Source: Candidatus Lloydbacteria bacterium RIFCSPHIGHO2_02_FULL_50_18 (lineage in GTDB: Bacteria; Patescibacteriota; Minisyncoccia; Phycocordibacterales; UBA6899). From it: a stretch of 64,000 nt of DNA. Positions within the stretch are counted from its first letter, which is position 1. Every line of letters begins with the position of its first letter. Both the position numbers and the translations under genes were made by a program. Below, piece by piece: positions 10,753 through 39,255 of the stretch. The notes beneath the pieces were generated by a model that saw nothing but the letters and a program-made list of their open reading frames with translations, made no database searches and was not told the DNA's origin. Location: positions 1 through 64,000 of the forward strand of contig MHLM01000012.1 of NCBI GenBank assembly GCA_001821395.1. The letters run 5' to 3'.

Positions 10753-10764
10753 GATTTTGGATAG

Positions 10765-11763
10765 TTATTGAATAGTCTGAACAGGTCCTGGCGTCTGCAT
10801 AAGGACTCGCGTGAATGGATACCCGGGTTCCCCCTCAGTGAAGACGATCCCGCTGGTCTTCAAAAATGAAACTACTTCACTGTATCCGGTGGTGACGTCA
10901 AGGCGAGTTTTTGTGTATGTTTGATATCCGGCTGCTCCATTGATCGGGTCAGAAAAAAGATGCTGCATACCAAGAAGGCCTCGCGACATACCGTCATAAC
11001 TATTCACAATAATGAGGTGTGACTGAGCTAGTCCTGAGGGGGTTTTTAATGCGCGCAGGTCAAGAGAAAATTTTTGATACACGATCGTGAGTAGCTGTAA
11101 TTCCTTGAGGGTTTCATCATCTTTTGTTTTTAGTCCATCAGCAAGTATCTCCTCTTCCGTGCGGAGGTGCGTAGAAGTGTATTTGTTGATGAGCTCACCG
11201 AAGGCGTTACCATAGGAACGCAGTGCCTCGGGACTATTGTCTCCGATGATATTGAGATCAGCGAGCTCATTCGCGGGTTTATATTTCTCCGGATTGAAAC
11301 CTTTGATAAGGTCGCGATAGGTTGTTTCACGGACCTCCTTACCTTGTAGTGCAAGAAACTTTGCATAGAATTCCTTTCGTTTTCCCTCTATGTCGGTCGT
11401 AGATGTTGCAAAATTGGGGTCTTGCATGATGGCAAGCTTGTCATCAGGTCCTGCCTTCACCGGGTTTCTGCCTTGTGCGACCTCTGCCCCATCGAGAGTG
11501 CCATCCCCATCTGTATCAGGGTTATGCGAATCGCTCCCATAAAGGCCTTCCTCCCAGTCAAGAAGACCATCATCGTCGGAATCTCGCGTGTCAATATTAT
11601 TTGCGTTGTTTAGACCCTGTTCAACAAGCTCTTGCGCATCGCTGCTGATTTGGGGTGCGCGGTTCACAAAAAAACCTACACCAACAATGGTAAGCGCGAC
11701 GAGGCTGCTGATCACAAGATTTTTGTGCGGTGAATGCAAAAAGTCCATAAGATTTCTCAACAA
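10765..11763 (-). CDS. membrane-anchored protein with Asp-rich calcium-binding (thrombospondin type-3-like) repeats
   Basis: TM anchor (LVISSLVALTIVGVGFFV) followed by DSDDDGLLDWEEGLYGSDSHNPDTDGDGTLDGAE, a DxDxDG-type motif. Confidence 0.55.
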   Translation of the reverse strand: MLRNLMDFLHSPHKNLVISSLVALTIVGVGFFVNRAPQISSDAQELVEQGLNNANNIDTRDSDDDGLLDWEEGLYGSDSHNPDTDGDGTLDGAEVAQGRNPVKAGPDDKLAIMQDPNFATSTTDIEGKRKEFYAKFLALQGKEVRETTYRDLIKGFNPEKYKPANELADLNIIGDNSPEALRSYGNAFGELINKYTSTHLRTEEEILADGLKTKDDETLKELQLLTIVYQKFSLDLRALKTPSGLAQSHLIIVNSYDGMSRGLLGMQHLFSDPINGAAGYQTYTKTRLDVTTGYSEVVSFLKTSGIVFTEGEPGYPFTRVLMQTPGPVQTIQ

Positions 11764-11897
11764 AAGAATGCTCCACTATTGTATCAATAATAGAATAAGA
11801 ACGGGTGAGAATATATATATGTGTGTGGATAACTGACGCTCGAGTAATCGATATTTCTGAATACAAAAAAGCGGAGCATGGTGCTCCGCATTCTCTC

Positions 11898-12464
11898 TTA
11901 CCGTCCTTTACCACCGATGATGCCAAGTGCTCTCTGGAGCGCATCCTTCGGTATCGCGTCGAGGATCTCTTGTGCCGCATTTCTTTCCGGTGTTTCACGC
12001 TTATCTGTCGCAAGATTGGGGTCATTTCCATTTCCCGAACCCGCGAATTGCTGTGCTTCACTGCTTTCAAAAATAAGGACACCTATGTTGTTTGCATCAA
12101 ATACAACCCAGGGTGTCAACTTGTGGCTGTTGATTTTCCAGACGCGGTCTACTGTTCCATGGATTATTGTTCGAATACGCCAAGCTTGCTTTCCATCCAC
12201 CGACCTCACGTCAAAACACCTGATACCCTGCCTTGAGGGGATGATGTTTCCATCCGGATCGCAACCCCCTATAGCGAAACCTCTCCCAACTATTTTTTTG
12301 GGCAGATATGGCCGTACGTAGGAATTTTTTTCAATAATAATCTCTTCCAAGGTCTGCTGCTTTGGGTCAGAGGCCGTGCGATTTTCGTCACCTTTATTGG
12401 CAAGTGCCAGTGGAGAAAAAGTGACCGCCAGTATTACCGAGGCTAAAAGAAACAATTTTTTCAT
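11898..12464 (-). CDS. hypothetical secreted protein
   Basis: 188 aa with signal peptide MKKLFLLASVILAVTFSPLALA. Confidence 0.55.
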   Translation of the reverse strand: MKKLFLLASVILAVTFSPLALANKGDENRTASDPKQQTLEEIIIEKNSYVRPYLPKKIVGRGFAIGGCDPDGNIIPSRQGIRCFDVRSVDGKQAWRIRTIIHGTVDRVWKINSHKLTPWVVFDANNIGVLIFESSEAQQFAGSGNGNDPNLATDKRETPERNAAQEILDAIPKDALQRALGIIGGKGR

Positions 12465-14207: not shown

Positions 14208-15050
14208 CTATTTTTCGTGAGGGTGTTTTGTATGACTTGAGATTTTCTTAGTAAGCCACATCCATGTTCCGATCGGCAGATCCTCTCCCCGTGCTTTTTT
14301 ATCAATACTGAGCTCGTCAAAGTACTCAATTATCTTGTCTTTATGTATACCTAATCCCTCTGAAAGATTTCCGACGAGCATTTTTCGTTTCGCGCGAAAA
14401 CCGGCCTTGATGAGGGTGAAGAATTCTTTTTCAGTAAAATCTTCGATCCTTTGTTTGCTGATATTGGTGATCATGAGGATCGCAGAATCGACCTTTGGCA
14501 CCGGATCAAAGGATTCCTTTGGGACCGTTGCAACATATACCGGGTCACCAAATATCTTAATTGAGAGTGAAAGGATCGTCTCTTTTTTGTTGCGCGAGAC
14601 GATCTGCTCCGCGACCTCTTTTTGTACGAGGAAGGTGAGCTGTGAAGGAGCACGGTGTTCCTCGAGAAAATAGCGGAAAAGCATTCCGGTAATGTAATAA
14701 GGAATGTTGGCGACGACTTTATATGTCGGCACATTACCGAGTAGTTCATCAAATAATTCCCGCGTAATATTTTTTTCCAGAATGTCGCCTTCTAAAAGTA
14801 TTAGGTGACCATCGCGAAGCGCATCAGCAAATCGGTCAGTAAGAATGGGGATGCAGCGCGTATCCTTTTCAATCGCGATCACATGAGCCCCAGCGTTCAA
14901 GAGGGCATTCGTGAGCGCCCCTTCCCCGGGGCCGACTTCAATGACGATGTCTCCGGGGAATATACCGGATGCATCAATGATCTTTTCAATGGTCGTTTCC
15001 GAGCGGAGAAAATTCTGTCCTAATGATTTTTTTGCTTGAATATTTTTCAT
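14208..15050 (-). CDS. rsmA: 16S rRNA (adenine1518/1519-N6)-dimethyltransferase
   Basis: KKSLGQNFL and VIEVGPGEGALT are the KsgA/RsmA signatures. Start taken at the internal Met MKNIQAKK. Confidence 0.85.
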   Translation of the reverse strand: MKNIQAKKSLGQNFLRSETTIEKIIDASGIFPGDIVIEVGPGEGALTNALLNAGAHVIAIEKDTRCIPILTDRFADALRDGHLILLEGDILEKNITRELFDELLGNVPTYKVVANIPYYITGMLFRYFLEEHRAPSQLTFLVQKEVAEQIVSRNKKETILSLSIKIFGDPVYVATVPKESFDPVPKVDSAILMITNISKQRIEDFTEKEFFTLIKAGFRAKRKMLVGNLSEGLGIHKDKIIEYFDELSIDKKARGEDLPIGTWMWLTKKISSHTKHPHEK

Positions 15051-15071
15051 AGAATCTACGCAAGCGGATGA

Positions 15072-15124
15072 AATTCGAGGCGTGGAGAAAGCGAAGAAGA
15101 CATATTCATATATGTTGACCGAGT
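15072..15124. repeat. short repeat, inverted copy of the one at 19503-19611
   Basis: The motifs GCTTTCTCCACGCCTCGAAT and GTCAACATATATGAATATGTCTT are shared (in reverse complement) with 19503-19611. Confidence 0.45.
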
Positions 15125-15170
15125 CGCAGAGGCTCCACAACGAAGAAGTTCGCCACTTGCGTAGATTCTA

Positions 15171-17195
15171 TTATATATAGACAACGCTGTCATTATCCTC
15201 ATCCCAGCCGAGGAGACTGACGCGTTTGCCGTTTGACTTGAAGGTATTCTCCGGAAAGGCTTCACCTTCTCGGGATTCATTCACCAGCAGTGCTTGGTCA
15301 AGGTCATCAAGAAATTCTGAAGGAATATTCACCGTACGGCTGCCGAAGATGGTGCGGAACGATGCGTAGGACAGAAAGACCTTCTTTGCAGCTCGGGTGA
15401 GTGCGACATAGAAAAGCCGCCGTTCTTCTTCTTGTTCGGATTGATCCTTGCTCTCATCGCGTGAGCGACGAGACGGGAAAAGGTCTTGTTCCATTCCGGT
15501 AATGAACACGTATGGGAATTCAAGACCCTTTGATGCGTGAATGGTCATGAGGCGTACTGCGTCAACCTCGCCCTTCATTGTGTCTTGATCGGACTCAAGT
15601 GCAACATCGGCAAGAAACTGCTCGATCCCTTCCTCTCCTTCAAAGACGTCATAGCGCGTGGCGACCGAGACGAGTTCGCGCACGTTCGCAAGTCGTTCCG
15701 TATCTTCTTCATCCCCGTCCGACAGTATACGCTCGATACCCGTCTCTTTGATGATGAAGGCGATGAGCACCGACGGCTTCATTGTCTCCTCGGCATGCTT
15801 GATCTTCTCAAGTAGTGCGTAGAATAGCGCGACCTTTGCACGCATCGTCGCGGGCAGTTTATCCGCTTCGCCTGCGAGGATCTTCATGAGCGTGACCTTC
15901 CCCACTCCCCGCGCGGGAACATTGATGACGCGCTCAAGATCAAACGGAGAGTTCGGATTTCGTGCGGCCTTCAGGTATGAAAGAACATCCTTCACTTCCT
16001 TGCGCTCATAGAAGCGGACCCCCAGCACTTGATACGGGATGCCTGCAAAGAGGAGTGCTTCCTCAAGCACGCGAGATTGGAAGTTCGTGCGGTAGAGAAT
16101 CGCCACTTCATTGGGACGCGCACCGCTTGATAAGAGGGCGGCAATGCGCATCGCAACGAAGCGCGCCTCGTCCGTTTCATCATATCCCGCAAAAAGTGAA
16201 AGCTTTTCTCCAGCAACATTTTCGGTGAATAACTTTTTTTGCTTGCGCATCGTGTTCTTGGCTATCACCGTGTTGGCTGCCGAGAGAATGTTCTGTGTTG
16301 AACGATAGTTCTGTTCGAGCAGGATCACCCGTGCACCGGGATAGTCCTCCTCGAAATTGAGAATATTCGCTATTGATGCACCGCGCCAGCTATAAATATT
16401 CTGGTCACTATCACCGACGACGCAGATATTCTTCGTTTTTCCTGCAAGCAGTCGAACGAGCTGATATTGGACTTGGTTTGTGTCTTGATATTCGTCGACG
16501 TGGATGTATTGCCATTGCGTCTGATAGTACCGGAGTATCTCCTCATGGGATTGGAGCAGTTTTACGGTCTTTTCCAGAAGATCATCAAAATCAAGCACGT
16601 TTGCTGACCGCAATGCCTCTTCGTAGAGCACAAAGACCCGCTTCAGTGTCGTTGCGAGGTAGCGGTTATTCGTCGTCTGCTCGATCGTATCTGGAGTTCC
16701 GAGATTTCCCTTATGGCGGGAAATGAGACCTTGAACCTTGCGCGGTTCGAACTGTTTTGGGTCAACTCCGGCTTTCACCATGGATTGTTTGATGAGTTTG
16801 AGTGATTCGTCTTGGGCAAGAATGCTCGCACTTTTCGGTATGCCAATCGCCTCCCCTTTTTCACGCAAAATGGAGATGCCGAGGCCGTGGAAGGTCCCGA
16901 TAAAGGGAAGATCTCTCCGGCGCCCGAACCCACCCACCATTCCTTCTGCCCCCAGCAGCGCAAAAACGCGTTCCCGCATTTCCTTGGCCGCTTTGTTGGT
17001 GAAAGTGATAGCGAGGATGGCACCACCCGGGACCCCTCCCTCCATAATATGGCCGATGCGATGGGTCAACGTTTTAGTTTTTCCCGCTCCTGCTCCGGCA
17101 ACAATGAGCACGGGGCCTTCCGTGGCAAGGACCGCCTTTTTCTGCGCTGGGTTCAGGTTTGCAAGGAGGTCTTTTGTCTTTTTTTCGGAATACAT
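15171..17195 (-). CDS. pcrA: ATP-dependent DNA helicase PcrA/UvrD family
   Basis: Walker A AGAGAGKTKTLTHRI, helicase motif YIHVDEYQDTNQVQY, and the UvrD-type motif III/IV spacing. 674 aa. Confidence 0.9.
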   Translation of the reverse strand: MYSEKKTKDLLANLNPAQKKAVLATEGPVLIVAGAGAGKTKTLTHRIGHIMEGGVPGGAILAITFTNKAAKEMRERVFALLGAEGMVGGFGRRRDLPFIGTFHGLGISILREKGEAIGIPKSASILAQDESLKLIKQSMVKAGVDPKQFEPRKVQGLISRHKGNLGTPDTIEQTTNNRYLATTLKRVFVLYEEALRSANVLDFDDLLEKTVKLLQSHEEILRYYQTQWQYIHVDEYQDTNQVQYQLVRLLAGKTKNICVVGDSDQNIYSWRGASIANILNFEEDYPGARVILLEQNYRSTQNILSAANTVIAKNTMRKQKKLFTENVAGEKLSLFAGYDETDEARFVAMRIAALLSSGARPNEVAILYRTNFQSRVLEEALLFAGIPYQVLGVRFYERKEVKDVLSYLKAARNPNSPFDLERVINVPARGVGKVTLMKILAGEADKLPATMRAKVALFYALLEKIKHAEETMKPSVLIAFIIKETGIERILSDGDEEDTERLANVRELVSVATRYDVFEGEEGIEQFLADVALESDQDTMKGEVDAVRLMTIHASKGLEFPYVFITGMEQDLFPSRRSRDESKDQSEQEEERRLFYVALTRAAKKVFLSYASFRTIFGSRTVNIPSEFLDDLDQALLVNESREGEAFPENTFKSNGKRVSLLGWDEDNDSVVYI

Positions 17196-19363: not shown

Positions 19364-19502
19364 CGAGTCAACAAAAGCACCCATTTGCTTTGTTGTGTTT
19401 CCCTACAGGAACTGTCCACTCGTTGGGTTTCTTTTTCACTTCATTCAAAGAATCCTCAACGAGTCTTGCGAAGCTCCATGTATTCGCTTCTCACCTCAGC
19501 AA

Positions 19503-19611
19503 CTCAGTCAACGTATATGAATACGTCTTTCCCCATACTGGGACTTCCAAATTCATACTCCCTACGGTCGTTGAATTTTAGGTCGCTCGTTGCTTTCTCC
19601 ACGCCTCGCAT
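19503..19611. repeat. short repeat, inverted copy of the one at 15072-15124
   Basis: CTCAGTCAACGTATATGAATACGTCTTT and GCTTTCTCCACGCCTCGCAT match the reverse complement of the 15072-15124 motifs, with a ~60-nt divergent insert. Confidence 0.45.
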
Positions 19612-19631
19612 CTGGGTTCTTTTGTCGACGC

Positions 19632-21188
19632 TCATGCAAATAATCTTTTTGGGCGATACTGCAACGCCTCGAGGATGTGTGCTTCCTTGATGTGGCGTGA
19701 TTCATCGATGTCGGCGATGGTTCGCGCAAGTTTGATGATGCGATGGTATGCGCGCGGTGAGAGGTCGAGGCGTTTTGCGCTCTCATTCAATAGTGTGATG
19801 ACGCTCTCGTCGAGCTTGATGAATTGGTCGATCGCATGAACGCTCATTTTTGCATTTTGTGTGACCGTGGAGCCGGCGAATCGTTTTGCTTGATGTGCGC
19901 GAGCGCGAGCGATGTCTGATTGGAGTTGCTCTATTTCCTTGTTGTCGTTTTTTCTTTTTCCCGGTGCTAATGTGTCGTGTGCAATTCGCGGGACCTCGAT
20001 CCAAAGATCGATCCGGTCGATGATCGGGCCGGATATCTTGCGTTGGTAGCGTTGAATAGCACCCGGTACGCACACGCAGGGTTTTTTGGTGTCCCCCCAA
20101 TACCCACACGGGCAAGGATTCATCGCCGCGATAAGGATGAATTCCGCAGGAAAATGTTCCGAACCTTTCGCGCGAGATACGTGCACGTAACCCTCTTCGA
20201 GCGGTTGGCGCAGTGATTCGATGACGCGCTTATCAAACTCAGGGAACTCGTCGAGAAAAAGCACACCACGATGCGCAAGTGTCACTTCACCCGGCTTTGG
20301 AATAGCACCGCCTCCGATGATGGAGACATAGGATGAGGTGTGATGCGGTGCGCGCATGGGCGAAGTCACGATGATCTCACTCGTGAGTGCCCCCGCAACG
20401 GAGTGGATCGCGGTGACCTCCAGTGCTTCTTTTTCAGAAAGTGGCGGTAAGAGTTCGGTGAATGCTTTTGCGAGCATGGTCTTTCCTGTGCCGGGAGGTC
20501 CCCAGAGGGCAATGTTGTGTCCGCCTGCGGCGGCGATCATGAGTCCACGCTTCGCACCTTCTTGCCCGCGAATATCGCTCCATGATCGATGTACTATTCG
20601 TGAAAGTGGTGTGTCGAGTGGCGTGGCTTCTTGCGGAGTGATGCGTTCATGCGCCGCCCCGCCTTTGAGGTCTGGTGTGAGGTGCGCGATCACTTGCTTC
20701 AATGAGGTGACAGGATAAACAGTGATACCGGAGACGAGTGCCGCCTCGCGCGCATTTTCTTTGGGCACGAAGACCTCCGTCATTCCAAGATTCTTTGCCG
20801 CACTCGCGATCGCAAGCGCCCCTCTGATCGCACGCACGTCGCCATTGAGCGCAAGTTCCCCTGCGAACGACCTGTTTTCCGTGGCGAAGCGGCAGTCTTC
20901 CGTTGCAAGGAGATAACAGAGCGCGATCGGTAGATCAAAAGACGGTCCTTCTTTTTTGAGTGAGGCGGGTGCGAGGGCAACCGTGATCTTTTGGTTGCGC
21001 TGTTTTGGTGATTTGTATCCGCTATTTTTAATTGCGGCACTGACGCGGTCGCGTGATTCTTCGACGGCCTTGTCGGGAAGTCCTACGATTGTAAAGGCGT
21101 GAATACCTTTCGTAAGATCAGCCTCAATCGTGATACGATGTCCGCCGGAAAGCGTCGGTTGGATGGAATACAGTTTTGCAAATGCCAT
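19632..21188 (-). CDS. comM: Mg-chelatase-like AAA+ ATPase ComM/YifB family
   Basis: MAFAKLYSIQPTLSGGHRITIEADLTKGIHAFTIVGLPD is a ComM N-terminus. Walker A GPPGTGKTMLAKA, Walker B VLFLDEFPEF, and a Cys-rich zinc motif NPCPCGYWGDTKKPCVC. Confidence 0.85.
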   Translation of the reverse strand: MAFAKLYSIQPTLSGGHRITIEADLTKGIHAFTIVGLPDKAVEESRDRVSAAIKNSGYKSPKQRNQKITVALAPASLKKEGPSFDLPIALCYLLATEDCRFATENRSFAGELALNGDVRAIRGALAIASAAKNLGMTEVFVPKENAREAALVSGITVYPVTSLKQVIAHLTPDLKGGAAHERITPQEATPLDTPLSRIVHRSWSDIRGQEGAKRGLMIAAAGGHNIALWGPPGTGKTMLAKAFTELLPPLSEKEALEVTAIHSVAGALTSEIIVTSPMRAPHHTSSYVSIIGGGAIPKPGEVTLAHRGVLFLDEFPEFDKRVIESLRQPLEEGYVHVSRAKGSEHFPAEFILIAAMNPCPCGYWGDTKKPCVCVPGAIQRYQRKISGPIIDRIDLWIEVPRIAHDTLAPGKRKNDNKEIEQLQSDIARARAHQAKRFAGSTVTQNAKMSVHAIDQFIKLDESVITLLNESAKRLDLSPRAYHRIIKLARTIADIDESRHIKEAHILEALQYRPKRLFA

Positions 21189-22674: not shown

Positions 22675-24870
22675 CTATATCCCCGGTTTTGGCGTGGGGA
22701 CGAATCTTTTTGGTGTCGGACCGGTGTCATCGCCATGAGATTCACTCATCATCTTTGCATCTCGCTCGTTTGGCTTGATGAAATCCTTGTCGGCGCGCTT
22801 GATGGAGAGGTTGATGCGACCCTTATCATCGACTTCTTTGACGACGACGGGGACTTCCATTCCCTCCTTAACATAATCAGCGACGCGCTCGATACGGAAT
22901 GGGGCAATTTCAGAGACGTGAACGAGTCCTTCCGCGCTGTGCCCTATCTTTACAAAGGCACCAAAGTCCATGAGTCGCGTGACGACACCCTTGAACATTT
23001 CTCCTGCAACGTACTCGTGGGTCATTTCCGCAATAATATCGCGTGCCTTCTCCGCGGAGCCGCTCTTTCCGGTGCAGAACACTGTGCCATCATCTTCAAT
23101 ATCGATCTCCGCTCCTGTTTGCTCGCGGATCTCTTTTACTGTTTTTCCTCCGGAGCCGATTACCATCCCGATCTGGTCGGGCTTGATCTTGATGACCACG
23201 ATCTTCGGAGCAAAGGGAGAAATGTCCGCACGTGGTGCTGCAATTGCGGCCTTCATTGTCTCAAGAATAGTGAGGCGAGCGGCTTTCGCTTTTGCAAACG
23301 CTTCCGCGAGTATCGGTAGTGGAATTCCATTAACCTTTACATCCATTTGAATTGCAGTAACACCGTTCTTTGTGCCGGCAACCTTGAAATCCATATCGCC
23401 GTGATGATCCTCAGGTCCCTGGATATCAGTGAGTACCTTATACTTTGTCGGTGTTTCCATCATCAGTCCCGATGCGATGCCTGCGACCGGCTCCGTAATG
23501 GGCACGCCTGCATCCATGAGGGCCAACGTGGAACCGCAGACCGAGGCCATTGATGTCGAACCATTCGAGGCCATTGATTCAGAAACGATGCGGATGGTGT
23601 ACGGAAAGGCCTCCTTCGCAGGAAGTACCGGCAGGAGTGCCTTTTCGGCAAGCGCCCCGTGCCCGATCGCTCGGCGGTTCATTCCCCCCATGCGTCCTGT
23701 CTCACCCGAAGAAAATGGCGGAAAGTTGTAATGATGCAGGTAGCGTTTCTTCCCCTGCACCTCCATTCCTTCAATGATGAGTGAATCCTGCGGTCCGCCT
23801 AATGTGAGTACGGAAAGCACGTGTGTTCCTCCGCGATAAAAGACTCCCGATCCGTGAAGTACGGGCGAGATCCCTCCTGCCTCTGCAAGAAGCGGGCGTA
23901 CCTCATCGAATGAGCGGCCATCAGGGCGCTTGTTCTCGTTGATTGCCTTTTTGTGCAGGAGATCATTTACCTCGTCATCAAAATATTGTGCTGCAAGTTT
24001 GTCATTCATCCCCTCGACGGCTTTGACGCATGTCATCCACTCATCCATGAGTGCATATTCGCGTGTACGGCCGGCCTCTCCCCAGATTGTTGATTCAAAT
24101 TTTGGAGCGATCTTCTCTGTAAACAATGCCTTGATGTCTTCACCAACCTCGTCGAGCTCTATGATGCGTTTCGTTTTTCCTAGTTTTGCAATAATCGCTT
24201 CCTGAAACTTTTGTAGTTTCTCGATCTCAGCACTTGCATAGGTGAGTCCTTCCATGACGACATCTTCTGAGATCTGCTCTCCCCCCATCTCGATCATGTT
24301 GACGTTGCCGTCCTTGCCGCAGACGATAAGCTCGCAGTCACCTTCAATGATCTCTACATTTTCTTCGACACGAAATGACGGCATCGTGACCCATTTTCCG
24401 TTCTGTCTAGAAACGCGTACCGCAGAGACCGGCCCGCCGAACGGAATCTCGGAAACCGCAAGCGCGATCGACGCACCGTTCACCGCGAGTACGTCCGGCT
24501 CGTCTTTATCGATCGAAAGAACGGTGATGACGACTTGTACGTCGTATCGTATGCGTCCATCGAAAAGTGGGCGTATTGCACGGTCGATGATGCGACCGGA
24601 CAAAACCGCGACATCCGAGGGACGTCCCTCGCGGCGCATGTATTGGCTACCAAGGATCTTGCCTGCGGCATAAAAGCGCTCCTCATAATCCACCGTAAGC
24701 GGGAAAAAATCTCCTCCCTCACGCTTCTTATTCGACATCACCGCGGTCGCAAGGATAGTCGTATTCCCATATCGGATAAAGACCGAACCGTGGGCTTGGT
24801 TCGCAAGGTCATTGAACTCCGCGATAAGCTTCTTTCCCCCGATCTCGATCTCGAATGATTCTTTTTTCAT
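22675..24870 (-). CDS. pnp: polyribonucleotide nucleotidyltransferase (PNPase)
   Basis: 731 aa with two RNase PH domains, KH and S1 C-terminal domains (GEMFKGVVTRLMDFGAFVKIG) and N-terminus MKKESFEIEIGGKKL. Confidence 0.95.
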   Translation of the reverse strand: MKKESFEIEIGGKKLIAEFNDLANQAHGSVFIRYGNTTILATAVMSNKKREGGDFFPLTVDYEERFYAAGKILGSQYMRREGRPSDVAVLSGRIIDRAIRPLFDGRIRYDVQVVITVLSIDKDEPDVLAVNGASIALAVSEIPFGGPVSAVRVSRQNGKWVTMPSFRVEENVEIIEGDCELIVCGKDGNVNMIEMGGEQISEDVVMEGLTYASAEIEKLQKFQEAIIAKLGKTKRIIELDEVGEDIKALFTEKIAPKFESTIWGEAGRTREYALMDEWMTCVKAVEGMNDKLAAQYFDDEVNDLLHKKAINENKRPDGRSFDEVRPLLAEAGGISPVLHGSGVFYRGGTHVLSVLTLGGPQDSLIIEGMEVQGKKRYLHHYNFPPFSSGETGRMGGMNRRAIGHGALAEKALLPVLPAKEAFPYTIRIVSESMASNGSTSMASVCGSTLALMDAGVPITEPVAGIASGLMMETPTKYKVLTDIQGPEDHHGDMDFKVAGTKNGVTAIQMDVKVNGIPLPILAEAFAKAKAARLTILETMKAAIAAPRADISPFAPKIVVIKIKPDQIGMVIGSGGKTVKEIREQTGAEIDIEDDGTVFCTGKSGSAEKARDIIAEMTHEYVAGEMFKGVVTRLMDFGAFVKIGHSAEGLVHVSEIAPFRIERVADYVKEGMEVPVVVKEVDDKGRINLSIKRADKDFIKPNERDAKMMSESHGDDTGPTPKRFVPTPKPGI

Positions 24871-24982: not shown

Positions 24983-25222
24983 AAAATAAAAGGTAATTAA
25001 ACCCTAGGGCACAAGCCCTGGACTCGCAGTGAGCTCGCAAAGCCTCGCGCGAGTCCAGGGCTTGTGCCGCCAGGATATCGAACCTTTTTAGCACTCCTCG
25101 GCACCACGGGGAGTACTTCCATTTTTCTAAAGCAGAATACTGCTAAGAAAAATTGGTCGCCCGGAAATGAAAAAGAAGACTTTTTTATTTCGCTCGCTCT
25201 ACGTCGGCAATAAAAGCGGGGC
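24983..25222. repeat. copy A of a 230-290 bp intergenic repeat element containing a ~20-bp perfect-stem hairpin; copy B is at 51613-51905 in inverted orientation
   Basis: GGCACAAGCCCTGGACTCGC...GCGAGTCCAGGGCTTGTGCC hairpin plus a shared ~150-nt flank (…CTCCTCGGCACCACGGGGAGTACTTCCATTTTTCTAAAGCAGAATACTGCTAAGAAAAATTGGTCGCCCGGAAATGAAAAAGAAGAC…). Confidence 0.6.
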
Positions 25223-25247: not shown

Positions 25248-25847
25248 CTAAAGCGACACTGCGCGCCGGGGTCGCGGCTCATTTCCCTCCCTTCCGCTCC
25301 GTCCTCCTCCGCGTGGCACACTTCTGCGTTTTTCCTTGAATCCCAAGAGATATGCGCTCGGATCTCCGGAAAGATCAAAGAAGTCGTCGGCGGCATCGCG
25401 CAATTTTGATGAAGCAGACTTACCGAATGCAACGACTTCGACTTGGATGCCCATATTGATTTGAAGGTATTTTACAAGCGGTTCGAAATCGCCGTCTCCG
25501 GAGGCGATGATGATCGCATCAAGTTTCGGTGCAAGCGTGATTGCGTCGACTGCGAGGCCGACGTCCCAGTCACCCTTCTTAGCTCCACCCCAGAATTCCT
25601 GGAGTTCTTTCGATCGTGTTTCGATGCCAATCTTACCGAGTGCCTCGAAGAATGCCTGTTCCTCACCGGATTTTGTTGAGATGACATATGCCATTGCGCG
25701 AATAAGTTTTCTGCCCGCAACGGCATCTTCGAGAATGTTACTAAAATTCACTCGGGCATCATCATAAAGATTCTTTGCACTGTGATAGAGATTCTGCGCA
25801 TCAATAAAGACACCGACGCGCTGGTCTTTGTGTTTTGTGACTGACAT
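25248..25847 (-). CDS. NYN-domain (LabA-like) putative ribonuclease
   Basis: RVGVFIDAQNLYHSAKN ... IIIASGDGDFEPLV, typical NYN/LabA residues. It lies between rpsO and pnp. Confidence 0.65.
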   Translation of the reverse strand: MSVTKHKDQRVGVFIDAQNLYHSAKNLYDDARVNFSNILEDAVAGRKLIRAMAYVISTKSGEEQAFFEALGKIGIETRSKELQEFWGGAKKGDWDVGLAVDAITLAPKLDAIIIASGDGDFEPLVKYLQINMGIQVEVVAFGKSASSKLRDAADDFFDLSGDPSAYLLGFKEKRRSVPRGGGRSGREGNEPRPRRAVSL

Positions 25848-26103: not shown

Positions 26104-26367
26104 TTACTTGATTCCTAATTTCTTGACGAGTGAGTTGTACTTTGCCTCACTCTTCTTTTTTAAATATTTGAGGTGGGCACGGCGGTCAGAAACCATTTTG
26201 AGCAAACCGCGGCGTGAATGATTGTCCTTCTTGTTCTCCTTCAGGTGCGCTGCAAGCTCATTGATCTTTTGACTTAAAATAGCGATCTGAACCTCCGGAG
26301 AACCGGTATCGGTATCGTGACGCTGGGTTTTGGCCATAACGACCTGCTTTTTCTTTGCTGTTAACAT
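26104..26367 (-). CDS. rpsO: 30S ribosomal protein S15
   Basis: [59 protein letters not shown] matches the S15 consensus. Start trimmed to MLTAKKK. Confidence 0.85.
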
Positions 26368-26415
26368 GGGAGACATCCTAGCACGAAAGAAAAAAAAACG
26401 CAACCTTGATCGCTG

Positions 26416-27006: not shown

Positions 27007-27948
27007 ATGGACTTACATGAGTGGAAAAAACATTTTCTTGAATACACGGAAATAGAAAAAGGAAGAAGTATTCATACGGTAGAAAATTATGATCGCTATT
27101 TGACGCGTTTTCTTGAATATTCGAAGCTGACGCAGCCGTCGGATATTACCTATGACGTCGTCCGTGAATACCGTCTTTGGCTCAATAGGCAGCTCGCAAC
27201 GGAGTCGCGTCGGGGGGTTCCGGAAACTACATTAAAAAAGCGGACACAGAACTATTATCTGATCGCTCTTCGCGCATTCCTGAAATATTTGATGCGTCAG
27301 GGTGCTGAAAATATCATGTCGCCGGAGAAGATCGAGCTCGCAAAAGTTTCAGAGCGTGAATTAGACCTGATATCCACACAGGATCTTGATCGTCTGCTCA
27401 TGGCCCCACGGGGTGATACGCTTGTTGCGCTTCGCGATACAGCGATACTGGAATTATTATTCTCCACCGGTCTGCGTGTATCTGAATTGTGCGGGCTGCC
27501 ACGCGACTTGGATCTTTCCCGCGATGAGTTTTCCGTGCGGGGAAAGGGTGAAAAGGTGCGTGTCGTATTTTTGTCCGAGACGGCGAAAGCAGCACTGAAG
27601 GCTTATCTTCACAGAAGGACAGATGTTGATGACGCCCTTTTTGTGCAGGTGGGCCGCGGCGGAGAACGATCCCAAATCAAAAAAGAAGGTTCGTTAAGGC
27701 TTACTTCCCGTTCCGTGGAACGCCTTGTGAAACACTATGCAATAAAGTCAGGAATCTCAAAAAAGGTCACCCCTCATGTTATTCGTCACAGTTTTGCCAC
27801 TGACCTATTGGAAAATGGGGCCGACCTTCGTTCCGTGCAGGCGTTATTGGGGCATGCAAATATTGCCACCACGCAGATATACACACATGTGACTGATAGC
27901 AAACTTCGTGAAGTGCATAAGCTGTTTCACGATAAGCGCAAAAGGTGA
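27007..27948 (+). CDS. tyrosine site-specific recombinase, XerC/XerD family
   Basis: C-terminal catalytic block HVIRHSFATDLLENGADLRSVQALLGHANIATTQIYTHV (R..H..R..Y). The N-terminal SAM-like domain has the conserved W/Y residues. Confidence 0.9.
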   Translation: MDLHEWKKHFLEYTEIEKGRSIHTVENYDRYLTRFLEYSKLTQPSDITYDVVREYRLWLNRQLATESRRGVPETTLKKRTQNYYLIALRAFLKYLMRQGAENIMSPEKIELAKVSERELDLISTQDLDRLLMAPRGDTLVALRDTAILELLFSTGLRVSELCGLPRDLDLSRDEFSVRGKGEKVRVVFLSETAKAALKAYLHRRTDVDDALFVQVGRGGERSQIKKEGSLRLTSRSVERLVKHYAIKSGISKKVTPHVIRHSFATDLLENGADLRSVQALLGHANIATTQIYTHVTDSKLREVHKLFHDKRKR

Positions 27949-31543: not shown

Positions 31544-31615
31544 TGCTCCCGCCAGGATTCGAACCTGGAATAACTGCTTCGAAGGCAGTCGTGATATCCA
31601 TTTCACTACGAGAGC
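31544..31615 (-). tRNA. tRNA-Arg (anticodon TCG)
   Basis: Manual cloverleaf: acceptor GCTCTCG/CGGGAGC, D-stem GTGA/TCAC, anticodon stem ACTGC/GCAGT with loop CTTCGAA, T-arm CCAGG-TTCGAAT-CCTGG. Confidence 0.85.
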
Positions 31616-31731: not shown

Positions 31732-31805
31732 GCGGGTATGGTTTAGTGGTAGAATACGTCCTTGCCAAGGATGAGACGGGAGTTCGATTCTCCCTACCCG
31801 CACCA
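31732..31805 (+). tRNA. tRNA-Gly (anticodon GCC), CCA encoded
   Basis: Acceptor GCGGGTA/TACCCGC, anticodon loop TTGCCAA, T-arm GGGAG-TTCGATT-CTCCC, 3' ACCA. Confidence 0.9.
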
Positions 31806-31828: not shown

Positions 31829-31888
31829 CAAATCGTGAAATAGCAAAAATAACGAGATATCTCGTTATTTTTGCTATTTCACGATTTG
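31829..31888. repeat. 60-bp perfect palindrome immediately downstream of tRNA-Gly
   Basis: CAAATCGTGAAATAGCAAAAATAACGAGAT|ATCTCGTTATTTTTGCTATTTCACGATTTG has exact dyad symmetry. Confidence 0.7.
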
Positions 31889-32150: not shown

Positions 32151-32310
32151 GGAACGAGCGTGATAAAAGGCCCTTCATAGGGCTTTTTATCACCGAGTGA
32201 CGACGTGCGGGAGGCTTTGCCTACGCGCACTAGGATGAACAACGAGCGTGATAAAAGGCCCTTCATAGGGCTTTTTATCACCGAGTGACGACGTGCGGGA
32301 GGCTTTGCCT
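32144..32310. repeat. tandem direct repeat (2 units of about 85 bp), each unit carrying a bidirectional terminator-like hairpin
   Basis: The unit CGCACTAGGA(TGAAC)AACGAGCGTGATAAAAGGCCCTTCATAGGGCTTTTTATCACCGAGTGACGACGTGCGGGAGGCTTTGCCTAC occurs twice. The hairpin is AAAAGGCCC-TTCAT-AGGGCTTTTT. Confidence 0.6.
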
Positions 32311-32496
32311 ACTCAGCAGTCATTTTTGATCAACTTGAGCTTTTGGTGTGCTGCTCACAAAGAATATACGTTTTTTATGAAATACAGGTAAATGCAAAGC
32401 ATTTTCTCCTTAAAAAATTAAACGTCGGCAATAAAATATTTTTTCTGAAATTCGTCAATAATTCCTAAAATATGTGATTTTAAGCATTTTTTGAAC

Positions 32497-34946: not shown

Positions 34947-34983
34947 CGAAGTATATCGGGGCGTGGTGTAATGGCTAACATGT
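34947..34983 (+). pseudogene. tRNA-Pro 5'-half pseudo-copy (degenerate duplicate upstream of the intact gene)
   Basis: CGGGGCGTGGTGTAATGGCTAACATGTCTGGTTTT is near-identical to the 5' half of tRNA-Pro at 35047. The anticodon loop is disrupted (TTTTCAGGATAGAGA) and the T-arm is missing. Confidence 0.5.
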
Positions 34984-35046
34984 CTGGTTTTCAGGATAGA
35001 GACCAGATGACAAGAGACAGCGTGACGTAGTGAGGAAGAAGTATAT

Positions 35047-35119
35047 CGGGGCGTGGTGTAACGGCTAACATGTCTGGTTTGGGACCAGATGACTCCGGGT
35101 TCGAATCCCGGCGCCCCGA
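35047..35119 (+). tRNA. tRNA-Pro (anticodon TGG)
   Basis: Acceptor CGGGGCG/CGCCCCG, anticodon stem TCTGG/CCAGA with loop TTTGGGA, T-arm CCGGG-TTCGAAT-CCCGG. Confidence 0.9.
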
Positions 35120-35163
35120 CTAAATAAAGAAAAGACCTTCAAGGAGGTCTTTTCTTTATTTAG
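35120..35163 (+). terminator. long AT-rich hairpin immediately 3' of tRNA-Pro
   Basis: CTAAATAAAGAAAAGACC-loop-GGTCTTTTCTTTATTTAG perfect 18-bp inverted repeat. Confidence 0.45.
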
Positions 35164-35190
35164 TCGAAGGCGCGAGGAGCACAGCTCCGA

Positions 35191-35302
35191 GAGGGATTCG
35201 AAGCCCTTCTCCCATATTTATGAAGGATTCTTATCCTGAGTAAATGGGAAAGGGGTACTGACGCAGTAGGCGTCGAAATTCCCGGCGCCCCGACTAAATA
35301 AA
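35191..35302 (+). repeat. tRNA-3'-associated structured element (Pro copy) followed by an exact duplicate of the tRNA-Pro 3' end plus 11 nt (att-like)
   Basis: GAGGGATTCGAAGCCCTTCTCCCATATTTATGAAGGATTCTTATCCTGAGTAAATGGGAAAGGGGTACTGACGCAGTAGGCG, then TCGAAATTCCCGGCGCCCCGACTAAATAAA. Confidence 0.55.
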
Positions 35303-35476
35303 AAAACTGCCTTTTGGCGGTTTTTTTATTAAATCTTCAAGATTGAAAATCACCTGCGGCGGTAAGGGTAGATCTCAGTTTTCAATGACTGAGAAGGCGT
35401 CATCGATAAAAAGTGTTTCACGTGGAACACCTGCGAGCTCGCAATGAATAACTTCTCACGATAGAATGAGTTTCTT

Positions 35477-36058
35477 GTGAAGAATCCCGAATACGAAGAA
35501 GGTGGACATGATGAAAAAAAAGACCTATTCCTTTTTGAGTTGGACGGGGATCTTTACGCTGTACCCGTTGAACTCGTCGATCGAGTAATGAAAATACCTC
35601 CGATCACTCCGATCCCCAATGCGCCGGCGGCAATTGTTGGTATCTTCCACTTGCGCGGAAAGGTCGTTTTGACCCTCGACCTCTCAAGTCGTATGGGTAT
35701 TTCCAGAATGAAGCCCTTAAGTCAAAACTTTCTTTTTGTCGTGCGGTATAAAAATGATCAGTTCGCCATTTTGATCGATACACCTAAGGTCATTGTACAC
35801 ATCCCAGCGAGCGAAATTCATCGTCCCGACTCCATTCTTACGGCCCGATTATCACCGCAATATGTCCAGGGAACCTTCATGTTTCAGGAGGTAACAAAAG
35901 TGAAAGTCCCTAATCATTCGATCTTCATCGAGCATATTGGTGGGGTTGACCGGAGGCCTGAAGAAATTCCACCATCACTTCGACCGGTACTCCTCCTTGA
36001 CCTTGAGCGAGTCCTTGACCAGGAGGATCTTCAGCACATGTTTATTTCACAGGAGTAA
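35477..36058 (+). CDS. cheW: chemotaxis coupling protein CheW
   Basis: CheW-like domain LFLFELDGDLYAVPVELVDRVMKIPPITPIPNAPAAIVGIFHLRGKVVLTLDL. Confidence 0.8.
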   Translation: MKNPEYEEGGHDEKKDLFLFELDGDLYAVPVELVDRVMKIPPITPIPNAPAAIVGIFHLRGKVVLTLDLSSRMGISRMKPLSQNFLFVVRYKNDQFAILIDTPKVIVHIPASEIHRPDSILTARLSPQYVQGTFMFQEVTKVKVPNHSIFIEHIGGVDRRPEEIPPSLRPVLLLDLERVLDQEDLQHMFISQE

Positions 36059-36079
36059 AGTCTATGGTACAATTTTAGT

Positions 36080-36442
36080 ATGGCAAAGGATATAAAAATA
36101 CTTCTTGTTGATGACTCAGCTTTTATGCGTAAGGTATTGCGTGACATCTTTGAAAGTGCCGGATATACGAATTTCATAGAGGCGGGAAATGGAACAGAAG
36201 CGATCCAAAAATTCAGAACAGAGAAGCCCGATTTTATCTTTCTTGATATCATCATGCCTGACGTGAACGGTATGGATGTACTTCGTGAGATCGGGAGCGA
36301 AGCGAAGGTCATCGTCGTATCGGCGGTTGGACAAAAGGATGTGATCGAGCAGGCAAAAACACTTGGTGCACTCGATTACATCGTAAAGCCTTTTGATCGT
36401 GATCAGGTGCTCGAAAAGGCCCAGCGGCATTTCGGTCAGTAA
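36080..36442 (+). CDS. cheY: chemotaxis response regulator CheY
   Basis: 120-aa single REC domain KILLVDDSAFMRKVL...DFIFLDIIMPDVNGMDVL...KP with the phospho-acceptor Asp. Confidence 0.85.
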   Translation: MAKDIKILLVDDSAFMRKVLRDIFESAGYTNFIEAGNGTEAIQKFRTEKPDFIFLDIIMPDVNGMDVLREIGSEAKVIVVSAVGQKDVIEQAKTLGALDYIVKPFDRDQVLEKAQRHFGQ

Positions 36443-36456
36443 GTAGCCCGACACGC

Positions 36457-37566
36457 TTGGTCAAATGTTTCATGAATAGTCAACCAACCGAAAAGATCCG
36501 TGTACTTATTGCAGATGATTCTTTTTTTATACGCACCTATCTTCAGGAGGTATTGAAAGCAAGTGAATCGATCGAAGTCGTTGGGCTTGCTTCATCGGGA
36601 ATCGAAGTAGTTGAGTTGGCACGTAAATTAAAACCCCATGTGATCACGATGGATTATCACATGCCGGGAAAAAATGGAATTGAAGCAACCGCAGAGATTA
36701 TGCGTGATGATCACCCGCTTCCGGCAATCATCATGCTTTCTGCTTTCGAGGGGGATGATGGCGAACATGTTCGAAAGACCCTTTTGTCCACCGGTGCCCA
36801 TGTGATCGAAAAACCGTCGGGAGAAGTGTCTCTTGATATAGAAAAGATTGCACGCACTATCGTACAACGGATCGAGGAGGTCGGGTGGACCGAAGTACGC
36901 ATGCGACACTCCTTTGCCCGCATGAAACACACTAGGGAACGAAGCCTAAATGGGCAGGATCGCACACTGCCATTTTCGGGGGTTGTCGTGATCGGTGCGT
37001 CTACCGGTGGGCCATCCTTGGTTGAAGGTTTGATCAAGTCGTTTGATCAGTATCACGGAATTTCGATCGTGATAGTTCAGCACATGTCTGCATATTTTAC
37101 TTCGCTGTTTGCTGAGCGGCTCGGACACGTTACCTCATTCCGTGTTTATGAAGCAAAGAGCGGAGACGTTCTTCTTCCGAACGATGCCCTCGTTGTCCCC
37201 GGTGGTTCTTTTTTGTTACCTACTTCGCTACCGGGTTCCCCGATGTGCAGCTTTGATATTATCGAAAGTGAAACTCATGCACCGGAGGCGCAGATCGACA
37301 ATTCGATGCGCGCGATAGCCGCTTGTTACCAGGGACCAATCGCCGGCGTATTACTTTCCGGAATGGGAAATGACGGAGCCGTCGGACTGCACGCACTGCG
37401 ATTGCGTGGAGGACTTTGTCTTGCGCAGGATCCGGAAACAGCACCGGTGCGTTCTATGCCGGCGCATGCGATTGATAGCGGTGAGGCAGTCGGAGTGCGG
37501 ATAGAGGATATCCCCGAACGTATCATGAGTCATTTTCGTCGACCATCACCGTCACGGCTTGCGTGA
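36457..37566 (+). CDS. cheB: chemotaxis protein-glutamate methylesterase CheB (REC + CheB_methylest)
   Basis: N-terminal REC (IRVLIADDSFFIR). C-terminal VVVIGASTGGPSLVEGLI, HMSAYFT and a GMGNDGAVG-like catalytic region. Confidence 0.85.
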   Translation: MVKCFMNSQPTEKIRVLIADDSFFIRTYLQEVLKASESIEVVGLASSGIEVVELARKLKPHVITMDYHMPGKNGIEATAEIMRDDHPLPAIIMLSAFEGDDGEHVRKTLLSTGAHVIEKPSGEVSLDIEKIARTIVQRIEEVGWTEVRMRHSFARMKHTRERSLNGQDRTLPFSGVVVIGASTGGPSLVEGLIKSFDQYHGISIVIVQHMSAYFTSLFAERLGHVTSFRVYEAKSGDVLLPNDALVVPGGSFLLPTSLPGSPMCSFDIIESETHAPEAQIDNSMRAIAACYQGPIAGVLLSGMGNDGAVGLHALRLRGGLCLAQDPETAPVRSMPAHAIDSGEAVGVRIEDIPERIMSHFRRPSPSRLA

Positions 37567-39250
37567 TATAATCAACCATATGCCGTTGAACATGAATAAG
37601 TATAAGGATCTCTTCTGCGCGGAAGCAGAGGAGCAGCTTGCAATACTCTCTCGTTTATTGCTTGTGCTTGAGAAATCAACAAACCACATGGAATACCATG
37701 AGGAGTTAATGCGCAGCGCACACACCATCAAGGGTGCCGCTGCGACAATGGGGTATGCTTCAATGGCAGAACTTGCTCATGCGGTTGAAGATATTTTTCA
37801 TGCAGCCGAGCGGGGTGCCCTTGTGGTTGATACACGGATCATTACACTATTGCTCTCAGCGATCGACCTCATGACGCATTCACTCGCCTCGATCAAGAGT
37901 AGTGACGTTGAACTTCCCAGTAAGGAAGTTGTTGATAAATTGAAAAAAATTCTTGAAGAAAATGCCGGTGTACAGACCGTTGTTCCGCAAGAAAAAACCG
38001 GTACTGATGTTCAGCAATTGCATATCGTCACTCCGGATACCATCAAGGTTAGTGTCGAAAAACTCGATACATTAATGGGGCTATTTGAGGAAATGTTGAT
38101 GCTCAGACTGAAGGCAAATTCAATGATCGAGCCTGCTGTGGAATTTGTTCGGACGACGACTGACCCTGTATTGAAGCAGCAATTATTCTTCATTGCCGAG
38201 CTCGAGGCATTGTTTGCAGAACTTGCGCGGCTCATGACTGAGCATCAAGACGCTCTTCTTGCTATTCGCCTCGTTCCCCTTGAACAGATCTTCGGCCAGT
38301 TCCCTCGTATGGTGAGGGATCTGTCGGTGCGAGAAGAAAAAGCGATCGAATTTTTTGTTGAAGGTGGAGATATCGCCTTAGACCGTACCGTGATCGAGGG
38401 CCTTGGCGGTGCACTAGCGCATCTTCTTCGCAATGCGGTCGACCACGGGATCGTTTCACGTGGAACAATATCTCTTTCGGCGGTAAGGGAAAAGGGACGC
38501 GTACGGATCTTTGTGGAGGATTCGGGCGCCGGGATCGATTATGGGCGGGTCAAAGAGGTGGCAACGGCTCAAGGGGTAGGCACGAGTGAAGAGATCGCAC
38601 TTATGGGAAACGAACAGCTCGCAGAATTATTGTTTCATCAAAATATGTCGACCAACAAAGTGGTGACGGATATTTCGGGAAGAGGAGTTGGTCTTGCTGC
38701 GGTGCGCGGGTTTGCTGAGGATGTCGGAGGACGCGTTGAAGTCATTTCTCCCATTCCGGAAATAGGGAAGGGGACCCGCTTTGTTCTTGATCTTCCGATC
38801 TCTCTTGCAACAGTGCGCGTGCTCGTCGTGCAAGCACGAGGGTACACATTTGCGATACCTTTCGATCATGTCATTAAAACACTTCACTTTGAAACGCGGG
38901 AGGTCGGTGACGCGGCGCATCAGGAAACACTTTTTCTCGACGGGACATTGTTGCCGCTGATGCATCTCGATAAAATTCTCAAACTATCATACGGTTCCGC
39001 TCCATCTCCGGAACATTCTCGAACCGCGGTGTTGATCCGAACGGGAGAGAAAACATTTCTTCTCGAAGTAGATGCGTGCACGGGTGAACAAGACCTATTG
39101 ATCAAATCGCTTCCTCCGGTTCTCCGTAATAATAAGGGATTTTCAGGCTCAGCGCTTCTCCCGGACGGACGAACAATATTATTACTCGATGGCCATGGTT
39201 TACTCATACAAGCAATAGACGATATACTGAACACCCAATCATTATCTTAA
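37559..39250 (+). CDS. cheA: chemotaxis histidine kinase CheA
   Basis: HPt motif HTIKGAAATMGY, HATPase_c HLLRNAVDHGI ... GRGVGLAAV, and a C-terminal CheW-like domain. Confidence 0.85.
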   Translation: MRDIINHMPLNMNKYKDLFCAEAEEQLAILSRLLLVLEKSTNHMEYHEELMRSAHTIKGAAATMGYASMAELAHAVEDIFHAAERGALVVDTRIITLLLSAIDLMTHSLASIKSSDVELPSKEVVDKLKKILEENAGVQTVVPQEKTGTDVQQLHIVTPDTIKVSVEKLDTLMGLFEEMLMLRLKANSMIEPAVEFVRTTTDPVLKQQLFFIAELEALFAELARLMTEHQDALLAIRLVPLEQIFGQFPRMVRDLSVREEKAIEFFVEGGDIALDRTVIEGLGGALAHLLRNAVDHGIVSRGTISLSAVREKGRVRIFVEDSGAGIDYGRVKEVATAQGVGTSEEIALMGNEQLAELLFHQNMSTNKVVTDISGRGVGLAAVRGFAEDVGGRVEVISPIPEIGKGTRFVLDLPISLATVRVLVVQARGYTFAIPFDHVIKTLHFETREVGDAAHQETLFLDGTLLPLMHLDKILKLSYGSAPSPEHSRTAVLIRTGEKTFLLEVDACTGEQDLLIKSLPPVLRNNKGFSGSALLPDGRTILLLDGHGLLIQAIDDILNTQSLS

Positions 39251-39255
39251 GTATT

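Follow-up and report, generated by a model that had tools for sequence, protein, structure and literature searches.

Mosaic intergenic repeats in a Lloydbacteria genome carry a short, probably mobile hairpin unit

Two mosaic repeats and their gene context

A stretch of 64,000 nucleotides (nt) from Candidatus Lloydbacteria bacterium RIFCSPHIGHO2_02_FULL_50_18 (contig MHLM01000012.1, positions 1 to 64,000; hereafter the window) contains two copies of a hairpin-rich intergenic repeat, here designated H1. Copy A (24983-25215, + strand) lies beside pnp, and copy B (51613-51900, - strand) lies beside a Na+/H+-pyrophosphatase gene. Both copies are mosaics, and comparison with related loci makes it probable that their most conserved segment is a non-autonomous mobile DNA unit of 45-61 nt that occurs across the Parcubacteria/Patescibacteria (candidate phyla radiation, CPR).

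Copy A is bounded by the start of pnp (22675-24870, -) and the stop of an NYN-domain gene (25248-25847, -), with rpsO (26107-26403) placed further upstream of pnp than the NYN-domain gene. The NYN-domain gene, which putatively encodes an RNase, and H1 copy A together split the usual rpsO-pnp pair here. Copy B is located between an open reading frame (ORF; 50668-51585, -) and the intrinsic terminator (51906-51936, -) of the pyrophosphatase gene (51958-54024, -), which directly abuts the 5' end of the repeat. As the preliminary description of this DNA had stated, the two copies are inverted with respect to each other and are oppositely oriented relative to their flanking genes, one being sense and the other antisense. 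They are 91-94% identical across three collinear repeat segments, all in reverse complement, which a repeat search of the window placed at 25063-25193/51696-51826 (131 nt, 91%), 25012-25062/51826-51876 (51 nt, 92%) and 25183-25214/51615-51646 (32 nt, 94%), jointly spanning 25012-25214 and 51615-51876. Inversion between the two copies is possible in principle; across the window, neither GC skew nor gene strand switches at 25.2 kb or 51.6 kb.

The two hairpins quoted in the preliminary description are likewise present in copy A. The long, GC-rich hairpin (25008-25068, +) is formed by GGCACAAGCCCTGGACTCGC (25008-25027), perfectly paired with GCGAGTCCAGGGCTTGTGCC (25049-25068) in a stem of 20 base pairs (bp), and the second, AT-rich hairpin (25164-25191, +) reads GAAATGAAAAAG-AAGA-CTTTTTTATTTC. 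The long hairpin of copy B (51820-51882, -) carries a G.T pair and a bulge. When compared with dinucleotide shuffles, both copies were found to fold with z scores of -7.8 to -9.5 on either strand, and none of 200 shuffles equaled them.

Alignment of copies A and B revealed a single large difference, consisting of 59-60 extra bases in copy B, and these bases proved to be an extra, diverged version of an internal module common to both copies. In a pattern search with this module, only the piece of approximately 57 nt was conserved in other genomes, namely those of Ca. Lloydbacteria and other metagenome-assembled genomes (MAGs). This piece is referred to below as the unit. Copy A holds one such unit of 58 nt (ACCACGGGGAGTACTTCCA-hairpin-TTGGTCGC) at 25103-25160 (+), in what we term H1 site 1, and the same site of copy B is filled by a 58-nt unit (51729-51786, -) that differs from it by 1 nt. 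Site 2 provides a filled and an empty state within one genome: copy B reads TTTCGC, followed by a 60-nt unit of another subfamily (ACCAC...GGTCGC; 51636-51695, -) and then TCGCTCTACG, whereas copy A reads TTTCGC^TCGCTCTACG, an empty TCGC^TCGC site (25190-25197, +) with its junction between 25193 and 25194. It is this nested unit of about 55 nt, rather than the whole element of 230-290 bp as originally supposed, that appears to be the mobile part.

Without its units, H1 comprises the long hairpin with GGTATTAAACC-like flanking arms, a linker ending in ...CTCGGC^, the AT-rich hairpin and a tail (...TCGCTCTACGTCGGCAATAAA). It begins with AATAAAAGG and ends with GGCAATAAA, a direct rather than an inverted repeat. 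Relatives of H1 were found in seven related loci (L092, L099, L108, L011, L124, L060 and L107), where L-numbers denote loci, mostly metagenomic, that were retrieved through single-pass, pattern-based scans of genome and metagenome collections. Site occupancy varies among these relatives, with L092, for example, having site 1 empty and site 2 filled, and the start of H1 often lies directly 3' of an intrinsic terminator. The 60-nt unit in site 2 of copy B is 94% identical to the unit region of L097. A synteny search for an empty site on the pnp side showed that L045 also has the NYN gene, with a downstream region that is not shared.

A second host repeat family, H2, repeats this pattern. The filled H2 copy is situated between convergent genes (19400-19640, +) and reads GAATACGTC(unit)TCGTTGC-TTTCTCCACGCCTCG. 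Its diverged unit (TTTCCCCATACTGGGACTTCCA-hairpin-TTAGGTCGC; 19528-19586, +), detected with an nhmmer profile of the unit, brings the number of units in the window to four. The empty copy (15036-15184, -) reads ...GAATATGTC^TTCTTCGC-TTTCTCCACGCCTCG and has no unit, and alignment showed that the H2 site of L083 is occupied by a canonical ACCAC unit.

Sequence, stem and distribution of the unit

The unit has the form 5'-ACCAC-N2-4-GAGTACTTCCA-(hairpin)-(T/A)GGTCGC-3', with fixed asymmetric ends around one hairpin, which leaves a 5' tail of 15-17 nt and a 3' tail of 6-8 nt. With a pattern that fixed both ends only, more than 119 metagenome loci were recovered among the matches listed, in addition to Ca. 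Lloydbacteria MAGs; after the removal of three obvious chance matches, these contained 119 distinct unit sequences of 45-61 nt. Viral contigs in IMG/VR yielded zero matches with either the strict or the relaxed pattern. Many units lie at contig ends, and the units break assemblies. End variants, including ACCACAAGGGTACTTCC, CCACCAGAGCACTTCC and CCACACGGGTACTTCT...AAGTCGTG, are also present among nhmmer matches. The last of these defines a diverged sister family, CCACACGGGTACTTCT-(stem)-AAGTCGTG, which occurs in L011 (2090-2160, -), L124, L046 and L110, forms tandem copies and can carry canonical units at its apex.

The stem sequence between CCA and (T/A)GG varies widely among units, yet pairing is kept. 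The hairpin has a stem of 7-8 bp and a CC/GG clamp; commonly, a bulge of 1-2 nt (TA or T) precedes GG and the eighth position holds an A.A mismatch. Because MAFFT alignment loses the stem register, pair statistics were obtained with a register-aware script. By this count, Watson-Crick pairs make up 97-99% at the seven positions adjoining CCA (about 98% of stem pairs overall), each position shows two to four pair types, and G.T and A.C pairs are about equally rare (5 versus 6 of 833 stem pairs). Free folds gave G.U counts of 24 on the forward and 37 on the reverse strand, an asymmetry that disappears in the cleaner stem-register count. Since an RNA helix would be expected to have more G.U pairs, the lack of a wobble excess on either strand points to a DNA hairpin rather than an RNA one.

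Insertion sites and ends

At two sites in DoxX-family genes, described below, the inserted length equals the unit length (54 and 57 nt). The left flank of units is variable apart from a C at position -1, and the 3' end is a constant GGTCGC. The equality of insert and unit length, together with the variable left flank, indicates that no target-site duplication is made beyond at most 1-2 ambiguous bases. Of 114 non-redundant junctions, 108 have C at position -1, 95 have G or T at position -2 and 76 have C at position +2; every remaining position carries less than 0.2 bit. Once the unit is removed, a hairpin loop closed by 6 bp or more holds 12.3% of junctions, whereas for random positions the figure is 2.1% (odds ratio 6.7, p = 2e-7); striking examples are L122, L016, L038 and L051.

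The unit's own 3' end (...TCGC) fits this target preference, which would account for units inserting immediately 3' of one already present, and hence for tandem arrays. Orientation relative to genes is near random, with the upstream neighbor on the same strand in 61 cases and on the opposite strand in 51, and the downstream neighbor in 59 and 52 cases, respectively.

Nesting, arrays and coding sequences

Units were found inside other units. In L107, one complete unit interrupts the apex of a second complete one, at ...GTCGCAAAGC^TCCTTATT..., and similar nesting occurs in L110 and L051. The hairpin AATGGG-TCCCTAG-CCCATT, which is empty in L013, holds in L107 (approximately 3080-3240) a unit that contains a second unit. 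Head-to-tail arrays with zero spacer (GGTCGC joined to ACCAC) were detected in L056, L042, L049, L031 and L045; in L056, one array has three copies and a second, at another site, has at least three. Moreover, an identical 53-nt unit occurs in three unrelated flank contexts, and conversely, near-identical host flanks carry different units in L078, L079, L096 and L098. A looser arrangement was seen in L118 (3277-4653), where three units in the same orientation each fill a short spacer between small unrelated genes (kinase-like, TfoX-like and SET domain). This gene-unit-gene-unit layout, which has common host flanks of the form ...GGTTCCAAC(T/A)TCGTC^CCATAC..., recalls cassette arrays.

Units also occur, occasionally, in frame within coding sequences, in both orientations. 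Three orthologous DoxX-family genes (L082, L067 and L068) differ by units only. In L082, a forward 54-nt unit at AATCGC^C... (site 1) encodes PQEYFHFSNRSAQEKLVA, and this site is empty in L067 and L068; these two genes carry, at site 2, a reverse 57-nt unit encoding PKFLTSETS(I/V)EIGSTPVVG, and that site is in turn empty in L082. Among 85 DoxX protein clusters, judged by their listed lengths in the protein database, most are of 115-116 amino acids (aa), 12 are of 135 aa and one is of 134 aa. Alignment of 15 of these sequences revealed that the 135-aa forms bear the insert at site 2 and the 134-aa form bears the insert at site 1; one further cluster is frameshifted at site 2. Those cluster members that are named belong to Parcubacteria, Patescibacteria or Minisyncoccia, and the length distribution suggests that the insert-bearing forms are derived clades. 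In L061, a methyltransferase gene contains an in-frame 57-nt unit just before its NPPY motif. Most other unit-containing ORFs are short and unclustered and are probably spurious.

Alternative explanations

The sequence is neither limited to two copies nor confined to the region upstream of pnp. A gene-specific or autoregulatory pnp leader was therefore excluded, given that the second copy lies downstream of the pyrophosphatase gene and that relatives are found in unrelated contexts. For the same reason, the part of the preliminary description that read H1 as a mobile or repetitive element stands, as the sequence is dispersed among many genomes and is not specific to pnp. The label of a miniature inverted-repeat transposable element (MITE) in the classical sense does not, as the ends are asymmetric and there is neither a terminal inverted repeat nor a target-site duplication.

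The unit and the H1 mosaic could instead be structured RNA, that is, a cis-regulatory leader, a processing signal or a small RNA module that is kept for binding protein or RNA. This reading, which we consider unlikely, draws on the very stable predicted folds, on the abundance of compensatory changes in the unit stem and on the frequent position of H1 right behind an intrinsic terminator. In L035 (two copies) and L039, moreover, units begin 7 nt after a TTGAAA-16-TGgTAAAAT / TACAAT promoter, and one of the L035 copies is followed by a terminator-like hairpin. The two G.T pairs found in H1 hairpins are on the same strand, which is weak evidence at best. However, no positional promoter signal was detected upstream of approximately 130 units (less than 0.2 bit), and copy A has no promoter-like site. 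Because the upstream regions of L035 and L039 are homologous, their promoter placement probably reflects one event, in which a unit landed behind an existing promoter. The near-random orientation relative to genes, the in-frame units in both orientations, the G.U pairs that do not exceed A.C and the sense and antisense positions of the two window copies all speak against RNA, and with it against the bidirectional structured regulatory RNA that had been offered as an alternative to a mobile element.

Rfam offered no family match for the element at E values up to 10, for the whole window or ten related loci at the gathering threshold, or for L035 at E values up to 1; the matches obtained were tRNAs and chance hits to miRNAs or CRISPR repeats. 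RNase P RNA had been suspected around the L035/L039 unit from AAATAGG...ACAGAA-like strings and was dropped for want of Rfam support. A tRNA 3'-end mimic (ACCA), a T-box, hammerhead, HDV and hatchet ribozymes and type III antitoxin repeats were also considered, and no supporting motif or context was found for any of them. The promoter-adjoining units themselves (L035 135-191, -, and 6411-6467, +; L039 492-547, -) are located beside tRNA genes, with the L035 pair inverted and 6.2 kb apart.

It is also quite unlikely, in our estimation, that the units are immobile, representing an old conserved protein-binding DNA motif (such as the REP sites bound by gyrase or IHF) that has spread as host repeats were duplicated and has been lost through slipped-strand deletion between TCGC repeats. 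Units are usually carried by duplicated host repeats (H1, H2 and the L118 flanks), and the empty state of H1 site 2 is the exact product of a deletion between two TCGC repeats, both of which fit this account. It is harder to reconcile with inserts at two sites and in two orientations of a conserved 116-aa protein, most orthologous clusters of which have the insert-free length of 115-116 aa. The unit within the apex of another unit in L107, the identical units in unrelated flank contexts and the different units at identical host sites are equally difficult for it.

A third possibility, which we regard as very improbable, is that the units are recombination sites or cassettes of a tyrosine recombinase, either integron attC-like or Xer-dependent. 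A candidate is the XerC/D-like gene at 27007-27948, located 1.8 kb from copy A; the single-orientation gene-unit-gene-unit arrays of L118 and L004 and the bulged bases of the unit hairpin are also in keeping with this idea. The units nonetheless lack inverse core sites (RYYYAAC / GTTRRRY), and their flanks are not complementary. The gene in question scores as XerD/XerC/XerA-like, reaching 118.9 bits against an integron-integrase cut-off of 265 bits, no recombinase recurs near units, and most units are solitary, with some lying inside genes. Finally, spread through an RNA intermediate, with the promoter-driven copy in L035/L039 as the master gene of a retroposed small RNA, is the least credible reading: the transcription start predicted from the -10 element does coincide with the first unit base in both loci, but this is a single evolutionary instance with homologous upstream regions, reverse transcriptase genes are not recurrent neighbors of units, signs of poly-A or priming are absent, and the many coexisting stem subfamilies would require many master genes.

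Comparison with known elements

The closest known element in behavior is the Rickettsia palindromic element (RPE), a short palindromic selfish repeat that is found both between genes and in frame within unrelated protein genes, which it does not destroy (PMC10969869). The unit likewise inserts in frame and adds a peptide, as in both DoxX sites and the L061 methyltransferase. Compared by description, however, RPEs measure approximately 100-150 bp and are restricted to Rickettsia, whereas the unit measures 45-61 nt and resides in CPR hosts. The unit further differs in having one hairpin with asymmetric conserved tails, zero-spacer tandem arrays and self-nesting. No mobilizing enzyme is known to us for RPEs, and none was found for the unit in the sequences covered here.

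In size and presumed enzymology, the REP and REPIN sequences are closest. These are very short hairpin repeats that are proposed to move in single-stranded form through a trans-encoded HUH Y1 enzyme and that cluster, inserting into or beside one another (PMC3116915). Each of the 119 distinct unit sequences is, similarly, a short imperfect hairpin palindrome, with neither terminal inverted repeats nor a target-site duplication. REPINs, however, are extragenic inverted doublets, whereas units are single hairpins that form direct tandem copies (L056 and L042) and in some cases lie in coding sequence. Furthermore, each REPIN family adjoins its RAYT gene, while the window (approximately 50 of its ORFs scanned) and approximately 0.9 Mb of unit loci yielded no RAYT.

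Members of the IS200/IS605 family, such as IS608 and ISDra2, insert in fixed orientation 3' of a short sequence, make no duplication and carry imperfect hairpins with a bulged base near the foot. They are cut approximately 15-19 nt 5' of the hairpin on the left and 6-10 nt 3' of it on the right, have a specific target of 4-5 nt and need two hairpins. The 15-17-nt and 6-8-nt tails of the unit match these cut distances, and its insertion 3' of ...KC is also duplication-free and of fixed orientation. In contrast to these elements, the unit has a single hairpin instead of two subterminal ones, its target information is essentially ...KC, and no consistent orientation within contigs was seen.

Mosaic intergenic repeats are represented by the BIMEs of E. 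coli, the BOX elements of pneumococcus, the NIMEs of Neisseria and the small dispersed repeats (SDRs) of Nostoc. SDR, NEMIS and ERIC are named in PMC3116915. H1 and H2 resemble this group in being modular and in varying in the number of a small sub-repeat, as seen with the variable boxB count or with SDRs nested in larger repeats. They differ from it in sequence, host lineage, unit architecture and in-frame coding insertions, and the unit is common to many divergent genomes rather than species-specific. Classical MITEs share with the unit a multi-copy, non-coding and dispersed character (four units in 64 kb and more than 119 metagenome loci among the matches listed), but the two ends of the unit, ACCAC... 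and ...GGTCGC, do not form an inverted pair, and the terminal inverted repeats and target-site duplications of MITEs are absent. Integron attC sites differ in possessing R''/R' sites (RYYYAAC...GTTRRRY), which the unit does not have.

The unit lacks defining features of each of the families compared. Literature searches on CPR/Parcubacteria repeats or MITEs brought up no account of it. We regard the unit as probably a miniature non-autonomous mobile DNA.

Possible mechanism and significance

Elements mobilized by HUH nucleases (IS200/IS605-RAYT and IS91/Helitron-like) share the properties of the unit, and DDE transposons do not. The asymmetric ends, lack of duplication, short-motif target, bulged hairpin, loop preference and head-to-tail arrays consequently favor an HUH-nuclease element, these being properties shown by such elements and not by DDE transposons (PMC3116915). 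We therefore tentatively favor movement by a trans-encoded HUH enzyme, through either single-strand "peel and paste" or rolling-circle transfer, while recognizing that this mechanism has well under an even chance of being correct. The unit would move as single-stranded DNA with the help of an IS200/IS605-RAYT-like or IS91-like enzyme, which would read the hairpin and its flanks and cut 3' of a short ...KC motif, both at the target and at the unit's own 3' end (...TCGC). The new target created at that 3' end would yield tandem arrays. An alternative is an IS110-type recombinase that reads the GGTCGC/ACCAC junction. H1, for its part, would be a hairpin-rich landing pad that is itself duplicated and dispersed, and any effect of H1 or the unit on pnp expression would be incidental.

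Several observations weigh against mobility or against this mechanism. Mobility is read from sequence comparison, with no transposition event or excision intermediate among the observations, and we infer both movement as a single strand and the enzyme behind it. When approximately 50 of the 64 called ORFs in the window were scanned against Pfam and NCBIfam, there was no transposase, HUH nuclease or reverse transcriptase, the sole recombinase being the Xer-like tyrosine recombinase at 27007-27948. Neither transposases nor HUH enzymes were present among the recurrent neighbors in 848 clustered ORFs from approximately 0.9 Mb of loci; the recurrent families are housekeeping ones, including aminoacyl-tRNA synthetase, Ddl, glutamate dehydrogenase, FtsW and PolA. 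Searches by tblastn with IS200 and IS608 TnpA returned nothing below E = 0.1, a result that serves as a lead only. Units can face both ways within one contig (L099 and L001), whereas IS608-type elements strongly prefer the lagging strand. Precise deletion between 4-nt TCGC repeats could account for some of the empty sites, and perfect stems could arise by template-switch repair of quasi-palindromes instead of selection. The invariance of the unit ends is in part ascertainment, as the search pattern demanded those ends. To these may be added the units exactly 7 nt behind a near-consensus extended -10 promoter in L035 and L039 and the two G.T pairs in H1 hairpins that favor one strand.

Taken further, mobility would allow a broader but doubtful proposal, namely that the unit is an undescribed class of ultra-small transposable DNA of approximately 55 nt, with a single hairpin and asymmetric ends, that is spread across much of the CPR radiation and is a regular source of new CPR protein segments. 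The enzyme moving it would be either a domesticated HUH nuclease for which a single hairpin serves both ends or an RNA-guided or other recombinase that reads GGTCGC/ACCAC. CPR/Patescibacteria genomes are small and are thought to be streamlined. If the proposal is true, a phylum-wide, actively nesting selfish element of 55 nt would be an unexpected driver of CPR intergenic structure and, through in-frame insertions, of protein variation. Its minimal anatomy (one hairpin, short tails and no duplication) would make the substrate sharply defined in a search for the enzyme responsible. In CPR genomes, units could also lead to errors when leaders, small RNAs and small ORFs are annotated.

Other observations in the window and related loci

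Other repeats were noted in the window. A perfect 72-nt direct repeat (32153-32224 and 32241-32312; 88 nt from start to start) has a terminator-like hairpin (AAAAGGCCCTTCATAGGGCTTTTTAT) in each copy. A perfect 60-nt palindrome without spacer (30+30; 31829-31888) lies beside divergent tRNA genes (31544-31615, -, and 31732-31802, +). Within 34948-35330, a tRNA-like 5' segment is duplicated (43 nt, 98%), and a further tRNA gene (35047-35119) is followed by two related repeats that bear terminators.

Among the genes of the window, a chemotaxis cluster (CheW, CheB, CheA-like and CheC/CheX) occupies 35477-39918 in this apparently CPR-type genome, and ATPase and platform genes of the type IV pilus/type II secretion system kind are found at 56042-59742. 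A run of minus-strand ORFs (132-12464), mostly without Pfam matches and arranged around a TraG-like P-loop ATPase (3099-4895), is possibly a secretion or conjugation-type module. In L103 (7121-10834), a class I aminoacyl-tRNA synthetase contains a histidine-phosphatase domain (Pfam His_Phos_1, residues 571-730) inside its catalytic domain.

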